From positions 1 to 64,000 of the IMG/VR virus record IMGVR_UViG_2974703250_000001: a stretch of 64,000 nt of DNA; one strand, given 5' to 3'. Positions 2,521 through 57,169 of this stretch are shown piece after piece; position 1 is the stretch's first letter, and each line of letters starts with the position of its first letter. A program made the translations under genes and the position numbers. The notes beneath the pieces are model-generated. The model did not search any database, was not told where the DNA came from, and saw only the letters and a list, made by a program, of their open reading frames with translations. The stretch is from a virus. Its lineage: Duplodnaviria > Caudoviricetes.

Positions 2521-4158
2521 ATGATCGAACTTCCCGACGCTATCTCTGATGGCGACGTTAAGAAGCTCGTTGAGAATGAGTTCTGGCCGGAGTTTGTGCG
2601 TAGGCGCGAGAAGCTGGACAGGATTGCGCAGTGGGCGCGGGGCGAGCAGCCTGATTACCTGATTCAGAACGCTAACCGCGAGAAGCGGGCACTTCTTAAG
2701 CTTGCTAAGACTCCCTGGCTGGGGCTGGTGGTTACTCACTTCACTCAGGCGCTCTTTGTGGATGGCTACCGGGCGGAAGGCTCTAAGGAAAACACCAAGG
2801 GGCCTTGGCAGACGTGGAATGCGAATAACATGCAGTCCCGGCAGATTGCCATTCACCGCGCGGCGCTGACCTACGGCTATTCGTATGCGCGGGTGTTGCC
2901 TGGTGAGGCGCTGGACGGCGCTAATCAGGCCGAGATTCGCGGTGTGTCTCCGCGTCGGCTGCTGGCTCTCTATGAAGACCAGATCAACGACGAGTATCCG
3001 AAGTATGCGCTAGAGCTTGCTAACAACGGTAAGACGGTGCGCCTGTACACGGATGAACACTATTACGAGCTTAAGATGCCGTCTCCGGGTAACTTCCCGA
3101 ACGAGCAGGTGATTAAGAAGGTTTACCACGGCGTGGGTGTGTGCCCATTCGTCCGGTACGTGAACATGATGGACCTAGACGGCTTCACTATGGGTGAGGT
3201 CGAGTATCTGGTTCCTGTCGCGTCGAAGATCGACAAGACGGATTACGACCGGCTGTTGGCGCAGCATTACAACTCGTGGAAGGTCAAGGTCGCTACTGGC
3301 ATTGATGACCTGTCTGAGGACGCTACGCCGGAGGAACAAGCCCGCGCGAAGCTGATCTTGGCGCAGGACGACATTCTGATGCACGGCAACCATGAGGCGA
3401 AGTTCTACACGCTGCCGGAGACGAGTCTTGATGGCTTTATCGCGGCGCACACGCAGGACGTTGAAATCCTCGCCAACAACGCTCAGGTGCCGGTGTGGAT
3501 TCTTAATGGGCAGCTTGCCAATCTTTCGGCAGACGCGCTTACAGCGGCTACTAAGGGCACGATTCAGAAGCTCTATGAGCGTCAGGTGACGTTTGGGGCG
3601 GCTCACAATCAGGTGCTCCGGCTGGCCGCGCATGTCGAGGGTGACAAAGAGGGCGCGCGTGACTTCACGGCGTCGGTGTCGTGGCAGGACACGTCGGTTC
3701 GCTCGTTGGCTCAGGCTGTCGATGCGTACGGCAAGGCCGCGACGATGTTGGGGATGCCCAAGGAGTTCCTGTGGGGTCTGATTCCGGGCATTACGAAGAC
3801 GGACGTTGAGGCGATGCGTCAGCACTTCAACGACGACGACGAGATGACTCAGATGCTCTTGTGGTGGACGCCTAACGGTCCTGGTGGCGAGTTCGCGGCT
3901 GAGATTGAGGTCGATTCGCAGAAGCAGGTCATTGAGGCCCAGGGCGACGTGCAGAAGGACTTGCAGGACGCCCAGGCGAAGGCCCAGGCCGACCTAGCGA
4001 AGCAGAACGCAGCGGCGCAGCAGAGGCAGGCGGTCGCGGTGGCTAAGGCCACCCCGGCTGCGGCCAAGGCTCCGTCGACGAGCAAGGCCGCGTCTAAGCG
4101 GACGCCTAAGAAGCAGGGCGGTGTCTCTGGCAACGACCCGGCGAGTAGGGCGGCATAA
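2521..4158 (+). CDS. Portal protein (SPP1 gp6-like)
   Basis: Position after TerL; 545 aa; actinophage portal-like sequence with low-complexity C-terminal tail. Confidence 0.88.
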   Translation: MIELPDAISDGDVKKLVENEFWPEFVRRREKLDRIAQWARGEQPDYLIQNANREKRALLKLAKTPWLGLVVTHFTQALFVDGYRAEGSKENTKGPWQTWNANNMQSRQIAIHRAALTYGYSYARVLPGEALDGANQAEIRGVSPRRLLALYEDQINDEYPKYALELANNGKTVRLYTDEHYYELKMPSPGNFPNEQVIKKVYHGVGVCPFVRYVNMMDLDGFTMGEVEYLVPVASKIDKTDYDRLLAQHYNSWKVKVATGIDDLSEDATPEEQARAKLILAQDDILMHGNHEAKFYTLPETSLDGFIAAHTQDVEILANNAQVPVWILNGQLANLSADALTAATKGTIQKLYERQVTFGAAHNQVLRLAAHVEGDKEGARDFTASVSWQDTSVRSLAQAVDAYGKAATMLGMPKEFLWGLIPGITKTDVEAMRQHFNDDDEMTQMLLWWTPNGPGGEFAAEIEVDSQKQVIEAQGDVQKDLQDAQAKAQADLAKQNAAAQQRQAVAVAKATPAAAKAPSTSKAASKRTPKKQGGVSGNDPASRAA

Positions 4159-39420: not shown

Positions 39421-40839
39421 ATGGCTACCTTTTTGCAGAGCTTGCAGTCCCAGTTCAACACCACTCGCACGGAGAACGGCGATAAGGCGCACAAGTCGTC
39501 GCTTGATCCGGTGGTGGATTACTTCGGCCTAGCGGGCGCTATGCGTGACCGCGCCGAGGCGTCGGCTGACCTGTTCGAGAAGGCGTTCCGATTCGACCCA
39601 CAGGCGGCGGTCCGGACCCTGTTCTATCTGCGTGACGTGCGCGGGGGCCAGGGCGAGCGTGACGTGTTCCGTGCGGGCCTCAAGCGGCTTCTGGCGAAGT
39701 GGCCGGGCGCTGACTACTCGGTGCTCAAGCATGTGCCGTTCTACGGGCGCTGGGACGACCTGTTCTACGACGGCGCGAACGTCACGCCCGCCGTGGCCCG
39801 GATTCTCCACTATCAGTGGGCCTCCGACGTTGCGGCGTACGAGCGTGGCGATCAGGTGTCGCTCATGGCTAAGTGGCTGCCGTCCGACAAGGCCGCTAAC
39901 AAGGAGCTGGCTATCGCGGTGCGTCAGGCGCTCGGTCTGACTCAGCGTGAGTACCGGCAGACCCTTACGGCTCTTAGGGGCCGGATTGGTCTCGTCGAGC
40001 ACGATATGTCGGAGCGCACTTACGAGCACATCGACTACTCGCGGCTCCCGGCTCAGGCGCACCGTAAGCACGTTAAGGCGTTCCGGCGCAACGACGGTGA
40101 GCGGTACCAGGCGTTCCTTGACGCGGTGCAGCGTGGCGAGGCGAAGGTGAACACGTCGACCCTGTATCCGTACGAACTGTTCGACCTGTGCCGGTCGGAC
40201 CCTTCGGCGGCTGACGCGTTGTGGAAGAACCTGCCGGACTACACGCAGCCGGGCCAGGATGCGCTAGTCCTGCCGGACGTTTCCGGTTCGATGGCGGGGC
40301 GTCCTATCTCGGTGTCGGTGTCGCTGGCGCTGTACTTCGCTGAGCGCAACACGGGTCCGTACAAGGGCTATTTCCTGTCGTTCGACACCACGCCCAAGCT
40401 GGTTCAGGTGCCGGAGTCGGGAGACTTGCAGAGCAAGTTACGGGCGATCAGTAGCCATACCAACAACTGGGGTTCGACCAACTTGCGGGCCGCGTTTACC
40501 GCGATCCTCAGGGCGGGGTTGCAGTCGGGCACCGTCCCGGCCACGCTCTACGTCGTGTCGGACATGCAGTTCGATCAGGCGCTTAACAACGCCGATCTGA
40601 GCGTGTTCGAGTCGGCCAAGCTCTCGTTCCAGCAGGCGGGCCTTGAGCTGCCGCACGTCGTGTTCTGGAACGTGAACGCGCGGCATGATCAGTTGCCCGC
40701 GACGGCTATGGACGGAAACGTGACTCTCGTTTCCGGGCTGGCTGCTACGACGTTTGCGCTGGCTGTGCAGGGTAAGTCCCCGCGTGAGCTGGTGGACGAC
40801 GTAATCAATTCGGAGCGATACGAGAAAATCGTTCTGTAA
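39421..40839 (+). CDS. Ro60/Rsr-like RNA-binding protein (TROVE plus vWA)
   Basis: RTENG, LFYLRDVRGGQGER, YGRWDDL, AKWLPS, DVSGSM MIDAS, VSDMQFD, FWNV. Confidence 0.9.
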   Translation: MATFLQSLQSQFNTTRTENGDKAHKSSLDPVVDYFGLAGAMRDRAEASADLFEKAFRFDPQAAVRTLFYLRDVRGGQGERDVFRAGLKRLLAKWPGADYSVLKHVPFYGRWDDLFYDGANVTPAVARILHYQWASDVAAYERGDQVSLMAKWLPSDKAANKELAIAVRQALGLTQREYRQTLTALRGRIGLVEHDMSERTYEHIDYSRLPAQAHRKHVKAFRRNDGERYQAFLDAVQRGEAKVNTSTLYPYELFDLCRSDPSAADALWKNLPDYTQPGQDALVLPDVSGSMAGRPISVSVSLALYFAERNTGPYKGYFLSFDTTPKLVQVPESGDLQSKLRAISSHTNNWGSTNLRAAFTAILRAGLQSGTVPATLYVVSDMQFDQALNNADLSVFESAKLSFQQAGLELPHVVFWNVNARHDQLPATAMDGNVTLVSGLAATTFALAVQGKSPRELVDDVINSERYEKIVL

Positions 40840-40882
40840 AACTTCCATCTTGCCGGGATGGCTCGGTAAGGTTGGAAACAGG

Positions 40883-40936
40883 TGGACGCGAACAGCAATC
40901 AAAACTTCTTCTGCTAAAAGAAACCAAGTGCGTCCA
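40883..40936 (+). ncRNA. Minimal Y-RNA-like unit 1 carrying a tRNA-Ser(GCT) anticodon stem-loop
   Basis: TGGACGC/GCGTCCA terminal stem, ACAGCAA motif, TTCTT-CTGCTAA-AAGAA hairpin. Confidence 0.7.
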
Positions 40937-40948
40937 GTTTAAAACCTG

Positions 40949-41078
40949 TGGACCCCCACAGCAATAAAACTACTTCCATGATAAGGACGAGGCGCGGGTT
41001 CAAATCCCGCAGCTCTTACGGTTTTCACCGTAAGGGTTTAGCTCAGGGGCAGAGCGCGTAAGTAAAAACAGGGGTCCA
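40949..41078 (+). ncRNA. YrlA-like Y RNA (circularly permuted tRNA mimic)
   Basis: TGGACCCC/GGGGTCCA stem, ACAGCAA, T arm GCGGG-TTCAAAT-CCCGC, loop-closed acceptor 41011-41038, D arm GCTC-AGGGGCA-GAGC; adjacent to the Ro gene. Confidence 0.88.
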
Positions 41079-41092
41079 GTACATAGCGGCTG

Positions 41093-41146
41093 TGGACACT
41101 AACAGCGATTCTAACTCTTTCAAATGGTGAAAATAGAATGTGTCCA
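41093..41146 (+). ncRNA. Minimal Y-RNA-like unit 3
   Basis: TGGACAC/GTGTCCA stem, ACAGCGA motif, inner TTCTA/TAGAA stem. Confidence 0.65.
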
Positions 41147-41161
41147 GTTCCACCGCGTTTG

Positions 41162-41201
41162 ATCCGCCCCGCGCCTAAATGACTGCGGGGCGGATTTTTT
41201 T
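41162..41201 (+). terminator. Intrinsic terminator closing the Ro-Y RNA transcript
   Basis: ATCCGCCCCGCG / TGCGGGGCGGAT stem followed by a T run. Confidence 0.85.
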
Positions 41202-41341
41202 ATGCCTAACGGAGGAAACATGCCAGGACCGATGTCCGCACCTAACGGAAACAAGCTGATCACGGTGAGCGCAGAGGCCCGTAAGAAAGCCGGTCGGACC
41301 GGCAAGACGGAGCTGGTGCGCGAGCGGAAAGGTAACAAGCA

Positions 41342-51556: not shown

Positions 51557-51656
51557 ACGGTTAAGTCCGGGTTTCCGGACGTTTTCGTGGGCATTGGGTA
51601 CATGCGACGTACTGTTGTGTGTACCCAACAGCCCGACGAAAGAAAGGGGGTTGAAA

Positions 51657-52595
51657 ATGACTCTGACTCTTACCGCAATGCGCGGTTATCCCGGCTCGGG
51701 GAAGTCGACTACGGCGCGCACTGTTGCTAATAACACGGGCGCGGTGGTGGTTTGTCGTGACGAGCTGCGGAACATGCTGCACGGCGTGTACTTCAACGAT
51801 GGTTCTAACCATCCTAAGTCGCCTAAGGACTTTGAGGATGAGGTAACCATTGCGGAGCGTGCGCAGGTCGCAGCCTTTCTCAAGGCTGGCGTTTCGGTAG
51901 TTGTCGACGCTACGCATTTGGAGCCGTCTTACTTGCGTAAGTGGGCGAAGATGGCCTCAATGTACGGCGCTGACTTCGTGCGGGTCGATCACATCACGCC
52001 GGTTGACGAGTGTCGTAAGCGGGACCACGCCCGGATGCTCGCTGGTGGCCGGTACGTGGGTGACAAGGTTATCGAGAAGATGGCTAAGCGTCACCCGGTG
52101 AAGAACTGGCCGGATATTCAAGCGCCACCGACGTTCACGCCGGAGCCGGTTGAGTGGGAGCCGGGCCTGCCTACGGCAATCATTGTCGATATCGACGGCA
52201 CGGTGGCGCACATGACGGGGCGTTCACCTTACGACTACAGCCAGGTCCATACCGACGTGGTTGATGAGCAGATTCGATGGCTGGTCAACACGGTTGAGTC
52301 CGAAGGCGTGTTCGTCCTGTTCGTGTCGGGCCGGGATGACGAGTGCCGGGAGGCTACTGAGAAGTGGCTTGCGGAAAACGGCATCGTCTACGACGAGCTG
52401 TACATGCGGCCTACCGGCGCTAAGGACAACCACGGGAACAAGCTGCCCGACTACCTGGTGAAGTCCGACCTGTTCGATAAGCATATTCGCGGCAAGTACA
52501 ACGTGCGGTTTGTGCTCGACGACCGGGACCAGGTTGTGAACCTGTGGCGTGCGCTGGGCCTTAAGTGCCTGCAAGTTCAGCCGGGCGACTTCTGA
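51657..52595 (+). CDS. Polynucleotide 5'-kinase/3'-phosphatase (T4 PseT-like)
   Basis: GYPGSGKST P-loop; HAD DIDGT, SGR, DDR. Confidence 0.9.
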   Translation: MTLTLTAMRGYPGSGKSTTARTVANNTGAVVVCRDELRNMLHGVYFNDGSNHPKSPKDFEDEVTIAERAQVAAFLKAGVSVVVDATHLEPSYLRKWAKMASMYGADFVRVDHITPVDECRKRDHARMLAGGRYVGDKVIEKMAKRHPVKNWPDIQAPPTFTPEPVEWEPGLPTAIIVDIDGTVAHMTGRSPYDYSQVHTDVVDEQIRWLVNTVESEGVFVLFVSGRDDECREATEKWLAENGIVYDELYMRPTGAKDNHGNKLPDYLVKSDLFDKHIRGKYNVRFVLDDRDQVVNLWRALGLKCLQVQPGDF

Positions 52596-55891: not shown

Positions 55892-57169
55892 GTGAGCTTT
55901 GATACGCCGGAGAACGTTAACTACGCGGCGACAATCGTCAAGCTGCCGCAGGGCCTTCTCCTAGAAGGTCTCGACAACCTGGTGGGCGTGCCCATGTTCG
56001 GCTACCAGGCGCTCACCCAAAAAGAAGGCTACGAGCTGGGCGCTCTGCGGGTGCTGTTCATGGCCGAAACGCAGCTCGACGCGGACTACGCGCGGGAGAA
56101 CAACCTGTTCCGCGAGGCCACGTTGAACCGGGACGCCAGCGAGACCGGCTACCTAGAGCCGAACGCCCGTGTGAAGGCGATCCGGCTGCGCAAGCACCAG
56201 TCAGACGCACTGCTGATGCCGTTGTCGTCGCTGGCCTACACCGGCTACGACGTGTCCACGCTCAAGCCGGGCGACACGTTCGACAAGCTGAACGGCCACA
56301 CGATCTGCCGCAAGTACATCCCGAAGGGTAAGAAGCAGGCCACGCAGGGCCAGCCCAAGGTGCGTAAGCAGGTCGACGAGCGTCTGTTCCCGAAGCATCT
56401 GGACACGGAGCACTTCTTCCGGAACCTGCACTACTTCCGTACGGAGCGGCGCGTTGTGGTGACGCAGAAGCTCCACGGCACGAGCTGGCGGGGCGGCAAT
56501 ATCCCAGTTAACCGGACTAAGGGCTGGTTTGAGCGGTTCATTAACTGGCTGGGCTGGTTCACCCATGACACCGAGTACAAGCACGTCTACGGCTCTCGGA
56601 ACGTCGTTAAGGGCCGCTCGGAGAATAACCACTACTACGCGTCTGATCTGTGGGCCGAGTACGGAAAGAAGCTTGAGGGGAAGATTCCCGAGAACTTCAT
56701 CATTTACGGCGAGCTGATCGGATGGGTTGATAACGACACCCCGATTCAGAAGGGCTACACGTACAACCTGCCTCCGGGCCAGTGTGAGCTTTACGTGTAC
56801 CGGGTGGCGACGGTTAACAACCAGGGTGTGATTGCGGACCTGTCGTGGGAGGGCGTTAAGGACTTCTGCGCGAGCTTGGACCTTAAGACGGTGCCGGAGT
56901 TTTACCTGGGCGTCGATCATTACCCGTTCGCGGACAATGACGATGCCGTTGTCAAGATTGCCTCTGAGGCGTACCTGGACAAGCGGTATGCCGACGAGGG
57001 GTTCCCGAACGCGGTTCCGCTGAGTGACCGCAAGACGGTTGACGAGGGTGTCTGCGTCCGTGTTGAGGGCCAGATTCCGCACGTCTTTAAGGCGAAGTCT
57101 CCGAAGTTCCTTGAGCACGAGACTAAGCAGTTTGATAAGGGAGAGGTTGACCTTGAAGCGGTGGCATAA
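55892..57169 (+). CDS. ATP-dependent RNA ligase (Rnl2/DRB0094-like)
   Basis: Motif I TQKLHG, YGELIG, DEGVCVR, KAKS; N-terminal OB-like module. Confidence 0.85.
   Translation: MSFDTPENVNYAATIVKLPQGLLLEGLDNLVGVPMFGYQALTQKEGYELGALRVLFMAETQLDADYARENNLFREATLNRDASETGYLEPNARVKAIRLRKHQSDALLMPLSSLAYTGYDVSTLKPGDTFDKLNGHTICRKYIPKGKKQATQGQPKVRKQVDERLFPKHLDTEHFFRNLHYFRTERRVVVTQKLHGTSWRGGNIPVNRTKGWFERFINWLGWFTHDTEYKHVYGSRNVVKGRSENNHYYASDLWAEYGKKLEGKIPENFIIYGELIGWVDNDTPIQKGYTYNLPPGQCELYVYRVATVNNQGVIADLSWEGVKDFCASLDLKTVPEFYLGVDHYPFADNDDAVVKIASEAYLDKRYADEGFPNAVPLSDRKTVDEGVCVRVEGQIPHVFKAKSPKFLEHETKQFDKGEVDLEAVA

Follow-up and report, generated by a model that had tools for sequence, protein, structure and literature searches.

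A tRNA-like Y RNA of a cluster L mycobacteriophage with a probable two-segment anticodon arm

Y RNAs of the YrlA type adjoin Ro60 genes in >250 bacteria and phages, among them some mycobacteriophages (Chen 2014, PMC4201824). The 64,000-nucleotide (nt) stretch of DNA analyzed here (the window; positions 1 to 64,000 of IMG/VR record IMGVR_UViG_2974703250_000001), which by its sequence is a cluster L mycobacteriophage, carries such an RNA at 40949-41078, downstream of a gene whose product is an RNA-binding protein of the Ro-like kind. Upstream of its T arm stands a small hairpin that looks like the anticodon arm of a tRNA, and the locus raises the question of whether this hairpin belongs to the tRNA-like shape and where that shape is opened. 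A sequence-only reading of the locus had described a nearly complete tRNA-Ile(GAT), opened between positions 26 and 27 and retaining an anticodon arm with a local stem of five base pairs (bp) at 40973-40989. The elements that it listed, namely handle, hairpin, AGGC variable loop, T arm, UUUC-closed acceptor without CCA, and D arm, all lie where it had placed them, and the anticodon-arm-like hairpin with a normal 4-nt variable loop is present, with compensatory changes and a U33/R37/A38 loop.

The comparative sequence data demonstrate the anatomy, conservation and base-pairing pattern of this RNA, and we consider it probable, although well short of certain, that it is a YrlA-type tRNA mimic whose anticodon arm is split into two segments, with the hairpin stacked below long-range pairs and a whole-tRNA surface available to a partner. 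The hairpin is not itself new and appears to be the published fourth stem-loop 'V' already described upstream of the T arm (Chen 2014, PMC4201824); what is new is its reading as part of a split anticodon arm.

Long-range and local pairs of the anticodon-like stem

YrlA-like units were collected from 12 annotated phage records, 75 IMG/VR loci and nine bacterial genome loci, together with RF02553 searches of 151 genomes each from the family of Mycolicibacterium sphagni (the prophage host) and from the class Actinomycetes. Three anchors fixed the numbering: the T stem, a rule for variable-loop length that is independent of pairing, and the point where the D stem ends. Because a MAFFT alignment of all 30 sequences (A1) misaligned the variable loops of 4 nt against those of 5 nt, columns were counted on A3, a MAFFT alignment of the 13 sequences with a 4-nt variable loop, and the full set was counted by anchored positions. 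False positives from tandem tRNA-Asn(GUU) genes were removed from the RF02553 counts; in Actinomycetes such tandem genes (L121, L122, L123, L125, L133) match the Rfam YrlA model with E values of 1e-6 to 1e-7, and YrlA surveys need to filter them out. A TROVE gene adjoins YrlA in three bacterial loci checked, and the long-range counts given below include genuine TROVE-linked bacterial YrlAs. An exact-pattern search of the genome contigs with the published primer sequence for the M. smegmatis YrlA returned no match.

The three bases that follow G26 in the window pair with the strand immediately 5' of the variable loop, as 41057-40989 (27-43), 41058-40988 (28-42) and 41059-40987 (29-41). In a set of 40 unique phage and Actinomycetes YrlAs, 37 pair at 27-43 (mostly C-G, also A-U, U-A, U.G and G-C), 39 at 28-42 (G-C in 9, C-G in 12, U-A in 15 and U.G in 3) and 34 at 29-41, with several pair types. 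When partners were permuted among sequences, 0 of 5000 permutations matched the observed pairing counts, and registers slid by 1-3 positions gave 7-21. On A3 pairing in the 27-29/41-43 helix reaches 94.9%, each of its three pairs shows double changes, and RNAalifold predicts this helix unprompted, together with the T and D arms. These counts contradict an opening of the tRNA between 26 and 27. With the bases directly behind G26 serving as positions 27-29, this comparative evidence puts the opening of the tRNA shape inside the anticodon stem, at 29|30 (28|29 in relatives).

Below these pairs lies the local hairpin. Of 30 unique YrlAs, 18 have a local hairpin that ends at position 41 and combines 3 or more bp with a loop of 7 or 8 nt. 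Shuffling of the upstream bases gave 4.9 such sequences on average and never more than 13, so that 0 of 2000 shuffles reached 18; the conservation on which the sequence-only reading had staked its proposal is thus borne out. The inner pairs change on both sides between lineages, 31'-39 between C-G and A-U, 30'-40 between C-G and G-C, and 29'-41 among U-A, C-G and G-C. The 14 distinct 7-nt loops have U33 without exception (14/14), a purine at 37 in 13, A38 in 12 and C32 in 11, while positions 34-36 vary freely, and this U33/R37/A38 pattern is, at the level of sequence, the signature of an anticodon loop. In the window, pair probabilities of the local hairpin are 0.86-0.93, with 40975-40987 as an alternative third pair. 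By these comparisons the hairpin is real, conserved and underrated in the literature.

Long-range and local pairs together cover positions 39-43 without a gap in 27 of 30 YrlAs, and since the paired strand is uninterrupted, the hairpin most likely stacks under the top pairs. YrlAs that have no hairpin hold all five long-range pairs (Lolly9, LeBron, L102, L104, L108, L112, L117, L118, L129), which shows that hairpin-bearing and hairpin-less forms are homologous. Between the break and the handle the window can form a further link helix, for which cluster L shows two compensatory changes, UAC/GUA to UGC/GCA and, in Bromden, U-A to A-U. As a family-wide feature this helix was rejected: it is 38.5% paired on A3 and not in register outside cluster L.

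In the model that we favor, the terminal handle and the ACAGCAA motif beside it would bind the DUF2828 Ro-like protein, while the rest of the mimic is read from sequence and comparison: the acceptor, a closed 12-bp helix, rests on the T arm, the D and T loops hold every tertiary nucleotide of elbow and core, and two chain segments build the anticodon arm, whose top three pairs are long-range and whose bottom two or three pairs with the 7-nt loop are local (40975/6-40987/6). From the 29|30 nick the chain would run out of the tRNA shape, by way of the link helix, towards the handle, which makes a three-way junction, and the hairpin, stacked under the top pairs, would complete a 5-bp stem with a 7-nt loop resembling an anticodon arm. 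YrlA would then display a whole-tRNA surface, elbow and anticodon arm alike, to a tRNA-binding partner and tether the Ro-like protein to it, a role suggested by analogy because it is known for bacterial Ro-Y RNA particles. Lacking a free CCA end and any conserved triplet, the RNA itself would be neither decoded nor charged.

The anatomy around this stem is that of a YrlA (Table 1). A closed acceptor-like hairpin separates the T arm, on its 5' side, from the D arm, and the anticodon stem is drawn from 5' and 3' segments at its top three pairs, the local hairpin replacing the helix below. The terminal stem is present, but the GNCGAAN0-1G motif is absent and ACAGCAA stands in its place. Direct reading places all tRNA core nucleotides within 40990-41056, namely U8, A9, A14, G15:C48, G18, G19, G26/A44, G45, G46, U54-A58 and C56. 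The fold of the whole RNA beats 200 of 200 shuffles (z = -4.4), and its minimum free energy (MFE) structure contains the handle, the T arm, the 12-bp closed acceptor, the D arm and the inner three hairpin pairs. Rfam at the gathering threshold finds nothing at the YrlA; below it, model RF02553 gives a local match of 20.1 bits against a cut-off of 69, over model positions 30-81 (T arm, acceptor, D arm). Neither ARAGORN nor Rfam finds a tRNA in the native YrlA and 12 related loci, where the sub-threshold YrlA match is the only one.

Table 1. Features of the Ro-like gene and Y RNA array in the window
Feature	Position	Strand	Basis and remarks
Ro-like RNA-binding protein gene, DUF2828 + DUF7788/vWA-like	39421..40839	+	Pfam; PHROG 850; the Y RNA array follows directly downstream
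Y RNA unit 1, short, without tRNA-like module	40881..40937	+	Handle and ACAGCAA at 40892; kept in all cluster L relatives
YrlA: handle, 5' strand	40949..40956	+	Pairs with 41071-41078; MFE fold; CCCC/GGGG vs CUCC/GGAG compensatory in relatives
YrlA: ACAGCAA motif, candidate Ro-like protein recognition site	40958..40964	+	In all three units
YrlA: link helix, 5' strand	40971..40975	+	Pairs with 41060-41064; 5 bp in window; weak support
YrlA: local anticodon-like hairpin	40976..40986	+	40976-40986 (30-40), 40977-40985 (31-39); MFE
YrlA: hairpin loop AUGAUAA (positions 32-38, 7 nt)	40978..40984	+	Direct reading
YrlA: positions 41-43 of anticodon stem	40987..40989	+	Long-range partners 41059-41057
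YrlA: variable loop AGGC (44, 45, 46, 48)	40990..40993	+	Direct reading; C48 can Levitt-pair with G15
YrlA: T arm, 5 bp, loop UUCAAAU	40994..41010	+	Rfam YrlA and tmRNA local matches; stem 100% paired with covariation
YrlA: closed acceptor helix, 12 bp, UUUC loop 41023-41026, no CCA	41011..41038	+	Direct reading, fold
YrlA: U8 A9 41039-41040, D arm 41041-41055, G26 41056	41039..41056	+	Rfam match; D stem 100% paired
YrlA: positions 27-29, contiguous with G26	41057..41059	+	Pair with 40989-40987; covariation, RNAalifold
YrlA: link helix, 3' strand	41060..41064	+	Partner of 40971-40975
YrlA: handle, 3' strand	41071..41078	+	MFE fold
Y RNA unit 3, short	41092..41147	+	Handle and motif at 41102; cluster L relatives
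Intrinsic terminator, 11-bp GC-rich stem, 12-nt loop, T run	41162..41202	+	Direct reading; conserved in relatives

tRNA identity and alternative readings

The 7-nt loop of the window, 40978-40984, has U33, the triplet GAU and A37. GAU recurs in Chaser, Bromden and CELFI, but Lewan and Zakai have GGU, Faith1, Gardann and Tourach have GUU, and bacterial YrlAs have many other triplets. Mycobacteriaceae tRNA-Ile(GAU), from three host-family genomes, is the best match of 101 tRNAs at 54/70, with Trp at 52 and Thr at 51, and the phage's own tRNA-Ile reaches 51 against 52 for Trp. Within the arm 13 of 17 bases match the host tRNA-Ile, six of them in the loop, and for the stem an identity of 7/10 is matched by seven of the 89 tRNA anticodon arms in the comparison set, two being tRNA-Ile. 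With a triplet that varies in sister phages and a similarity outside the loop that is not Ile-specific, the proposed tRNA-Ile(GAT) identity finds no support; judged by these alignments, Ile is the state of one lineage and the YrlA is not specifically Ile-like. The CUUC stretch, cited as a further resemblance to tRNA-Ile, is part of a YUAC-UUC motif in bacterial YrlAs with other loops. Un-permuting the sequence, the check that had been proposed, does yield an ARAGORN call of tRNA-Ile(gat), but because a tRNA is still called in 383 of 500 constructs in which the 17-mer of the arm was shuffled, the call does not discriminate and rests on the other arms. The acceptor in turn offers no free chargeable end, being a 12-bp helix with a tetraloop and no CCA.

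The consensus loop of the family is that of tRNA-Asn(GUU), which stands unchanged in three distant lineages (the Faith1 group, L078b and L126), and in L109 (genome G015, Mycobacteriaceae) the hairpin stem UUCGA/UCGAA equals the anticodon stem of that genome's own tRNA-Asn(GUU) (G015:C122:11887-11917). This Asn-like loop and stem may be a trace of the ancestral tRNA, as a lead on ancestry only. GenBank records place a tRNA-Thr over the YrlA of Zakai (L004 470-540) and a tRNA-Asn over that of Gardann (L012 470-540), each spanning the handle, the hairpin, the T arm and part of the acceptor, and Wilder has a tRNA-Asn annotation under the same YrlA match. Current ARAGORN does not reproduce the calls at these YrlA loci; they are very likely mis-annotations, and the YrlA reading explains such spurious tRNA-Thr and tRNA-Asn genes in some GenBank phage records.

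Several points weigh against a split anticodon arm. In the window sequence the long-range pairs have a probability of 0.002 under the nearest-neighbor energy model, and the composite fold comes to -44.0 kcal/mol vs -47.6 for the local 3-bp hairpin alone, where only the difference counts since the constructs share one non-canonical terminal pair. Positions 27-28 and 42-43 are invariant within cluster L, so that the covariation comes from more distant relatives; 29-41 is equally possible as a local pair (12/13 vs 11/13); one relative, L039, is without long-range pairs; and 8-nt loops occur in 4 of 23 hairpin-bearing YrlAs, with the L024 group and L111 adding more. Solely remote signals suggest the Ro-likeness of the DUF2828 protein, and we infer, rather than observe, the coaxial stacking, the binding of the Ro-like protein, the separation of the units and any partner. 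The same pairs would also form if the hairpin were a mere side branch ('V') at the site of the Salmonella UA kink, with the top pairs stacked on the link helix as the long YrlA anticodon stem that runs to the handle and the loop having no part in tRNA mimicry. That the 3' strand 41057-41064 is continuously paired in the window and in cluster L, through three top and five link pairs, would suit this arrangement, as would the name 'V' given to the pre-T stem-loop (PMC4201824), the continuous, kinked stem without an anticodon loop in Salmonella (bioRxiv 10.1101/312249) and the 8-nt loops in four or more lineages. Yet four bases of the variable loop and two or three of the top helix separate the hairpin from the T stem, which is not the position of a variable arm, and a 7-nt loop with invariant U33 and purine 37 is unlike class II variable arms. 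The link helix, at 38.5% paired, is lost outside the cluster L register, where bacterial relatives have unpaired bases, whereas the 39-43 strand is uninterrupted family-wide; and hairpins of the true V type, which other lineages carry with a GCAU tetraloop and only 1-3 nt away from the T stem, look different. We regard the side branch as unlikely, though it deserves to be kept in view.

A wholly local 5-bp arm at 40973-40989, inherited from tRNA-Ile(GAU) in a tRNA opened between 26 and 27, strikes us as improbable. The MFE and centroid folds do hold 40973-40989 and the inner three pairs, and a full 5-bp local stem is possible in L109, L091, L053, L124 and L126; the ARAGORN call on the un-permuted sequence and the rank of host tRNA-Ile(GAU), with its 13/17 in the arm, point the same way. 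By the comparisons, however, the outer pairs of this stem are not those under selection: 40974/40988 is a U.C mismatch, and local 28'-42, a U.C in all cluster L phages, pairs in only 11 of the 23 YrlAs with a hairpin (5 of 13 on A3), against 39 of 40 with changes on both sides for the long-range pair; local 27'-43 is mostly U.G. The 5' partners at 27'-28' are mostly U in the relatives, and pairing follows only from a purine at 42-43. The survival of the ARAGORN call under arm shuffling, the GGU and GUU triplets of sister phages with the wide triplet variation in bacteria, the margin of only 2 nt over Trp and the 7/89 arms of equal stem identity likewise tell against an Ile origin. Still harder to credit is a precursor of a working tRNA, in which the acceptor would be opened, CCA added, the handle removed and 29 joined to 30 by the phage RNA ligase in the style of algal permuted tRNAs. 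The phage does encode an RNA ligase and a polynucleotide kinase, Lewan and Faith1 have acceptors of exactly 7 bp, M. smegmatis YrlA is cleaved by RNase P and then gains CCA (PMC4201824), and processing of YrlA to tRNA-like forms has been raised as a possibility by others (bioRxiv 10.1101/312249). The window acceptor, however, is an uninterrupted 12-bp helix, so that position +1 is paired; no single tRNA identity is compatible with the free swapping of acceptor modules and triplet between close relatives; and the phage already has a tRNA-Ile(GAU). We know of no bacterial splicing endonuclease for such a step.

The acceptor itself varies. The 12-bp module is identical in the window and in the M. 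sphagni prophage, and Chaser differs from it at one loop base. In comparison with window 41011-41038, Bromden and Crossroads carry a bulged 27-nt type, and Lewan, Faith1 and CELFI a 7-bp type with a 5-nt loop (L002, L003, L005, L007, L088). The acceptor hairpin looks like an exchangeable module; the grouping by acceptor disagrees with that by hairpin loop, a conflict that suggests recombination inside the RNA gene. In Lewan and Faith1 (L003, L006) there are exactly seven acceptor pairs, 19 nt after the T arm, as in M. smegmatis YrlA. By analogy with that RNA, the 12-bp acceptor of the window should be a poor RNase P substrate, and with 7-bp and 12-bp acceptors side by side processing may differ between close relatives.

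The Y RNA array and its Ro-like gene

The YrlA is the middle of three Y-type RNAs downstream of the Ro-like gene, a layout kept in 12 of 12 cluster L relatives fetched. In a nucleotide search, 40840-41210 matched solely cluster L mycobacteriophages (72 records), the closest being Chaser at 91% and Bromden at 85% identity. All three units combine a GUGGAC...GUCCAG-type handle with an ACAGC(A/G)A motif (at 40892, 40958 and 41102), which is different from the GNCGAA motif of TROVE-linked Y RNAs. Across 73 loci ACAGCAA occurs at 2.79 per kilobase within 600 nt downstream of Ro-like genes vs 0.24 per kilobase elsewhere, an approximately 12-fold enrichment 3' of DUF2828 Ro-like genes with 1-5 copies per locus; Ro-like genes of the DUF2828 type carry their own Y RNA arrays, marked by this motif. 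The array is probably co-transcribed with the Ro-like gene and would end at one shared terminator, at 41162-41202, which a terminator scan limited to loops of <=8 nt did not call.

Arrays differ in how many tRNA-like units they hold. In four prophage-like loci (L021, L025, L031, L034; ~2745-2810), with Ro-like proteins that are 56-58% identical, handle and motif are present in the middle unit and the tRNA-like module is absent. Some metagenomic phage loci have two tRNA-like units per array, L078 at 2896-2995 and 3152-3245, and L056 and L060 at ~2750 and ~3065. Phage loci L049, L056 and L060 (~2750-2850) have another kind of pre-T hairpin, which has 5-6 bp, is capped by a GCAU tetraloop and stands only 1-3 nt from the T stem; by its sequence it fits a class II variable arm, and two kinds of pre-T hairpin exist in the family.

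The product of the Ro-like gene has 472 amino acids, is assigned by PHROG 850 to 'RNA-binding protein', and has orthologues annotated 'Ro-like RNA binding protein' in related phage records. It has no TROVE match in Pfam and no sequence match in PDB. Among its language-model feature neighbors, 24 of 30 belong to the TROVE/vWA_Ro60 family set and other rows carry TROVE too, which is a lead and no test of Ro identity; a HMMER profile of the DUF2828 family, compared with TROVE proteins, has only the vWA D-x-S-G-S motif in common with them. The same phage encodes a polynucleotide kinase (51594-52595), an RNA ligase (55892-57169) and 14 tRNAs (genome 63804-67962), including tRNA-Ile(GAU) and tRNA-Asn(GUU), a combination with the Ro-like/Y RNA operon that echoes the Salmonella rsr-yrlA-rtcBA RNA repair operon. 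The LeBron orthologue of the Ro-like protein, when overproduced, is toxic to M. smegmatis (PMC13148394). Because of this toxicity and of the phage kinase, ligase and 14 tRNAs, a link of the operon with tRNA damage and repair is plausible by analogy.

Relation to known YrlAs and implications

The Salmonella YrlA module (PDB 6CU1) is a circularly permuted tRNA mimic whose anticodon stem, built from 5' and 3' segments, is continuous with a UA kink and is stated to lack an anticodon loop (bioRxiv 10.1101/312249). Like this RNA (RF02553), the window YrlA lies beside a Ro-type gene and has its T arm 5' of its D arm, a closed acceptor between them, the tRNA core nucleotides, an anticodon-stem top from 5' and 3' segments and a terminal stem that leads to a protein-binding module. 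Unlike it, the window RNA has a hairpin of 11-13 nt with an anticodon-type loop inserted in the 39-43 strand, approximately at the site of the UA kink, an acceptor of 12 bp rather than 6, a DUF2828-type partner that is not TROVE by Pfam, and ACAGCAA in place of GNCGAAN0-1G. YrlA binding to Ro60 through the terminal stem and the tRNA-like fold are both published (PMC4201824; bioRxiv 10.1101/312249), and in Deinococcus and Salmonella a Y RNA tethers Ro60 to PNPase (PMC4201824; bioRxiv 10.1101/312249).

Closer still are the YrlAs of M. smegmatis and other Actinomycetes (L103-L126), which have in common the YUAC-UUC motif, a hairpin of 3 bp whose 7-nt loop reads C-U-N-N-N-R-A, two bases pairing with 27-28 and a 4-5-nt variable loop; the printed M. 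smegmatis oligonucleotides agree (PMC4201824). The bacterial members differ from the window in lying beside TROVE Ro60 genes with GNCGAA-type motifs, and the M. smegmatis acceptor has 7 bp. Published drawings of Actinomycetes YrlA label the hairpin a variable arm (PMC4201824). A hairpin upstream of the T arm is indeed shared with class II tRNAs; here, unlike a class II variable arm, it is followed by six bases, of which two or three lie in the 27-29 helix and four in the variable loop, and its loop has 7-8 nt. Permuted tRNA genes such as those of Cyanidioschyzon merolae (cited in bioRxiv 10.1101/312249) similarly have a loop-closed acceptor and transcript ends that meet elsewhere in the cloverleaf, but are made functional by a splicing endonuclease and a ligase, whereas the ends of the window RNA run into a putative Ro-binding handle and it has no conserved identity.

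The sequence-only reading had taken the retained anticodon arm as a pointer to origin, and this fits the published dimeric-tRNA model (Sim and Wolin 2018, as presented in bioRxiv 10.1101/312249). As given there, a first tRNA contributes its anticodon arm, variable loop and T arm on the 5' side of the acceptor spacer, and a second one its D arm and positions 26-31 on the 3' side. The window has the same order of elements; in that presentation the model is an origin proposal and not a structure, and what the window would add is a continued use of the two anticodon-stem remnants, joined into one composite stem.

A large subfamily of actinobacterial and actinophage YrlAs would accordingly keep a 5-bp stem and a 7-nt U33/R37 loop built from two segments, and the split arm would give concrete support to a dimeric-tRNA origin. 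The anticodon-like loop might even be functional, so that the Ro-type particle of actinobacteria and actinophages would present a complete tRNA decoy or sensor to enzymes acting on anticodon loops, for example host anticodon nucleases or enzymes that modify position 37. We consider this doubtful; if true, YrlA would work together with the kinase, ligase and 14-tRNA array of the phage, and the fact that close cluster L relatives differ at position 35 only (A, G or U) would record an arms race over the host enzyme engaged. The base-pairing model is precise enough for mutate-and-rescue experiments, and the search for partners of the tRNA-like module of bacterial Y RNAs, so far directed by published work at the elbow, would widen to include readers of the anticodon arm.

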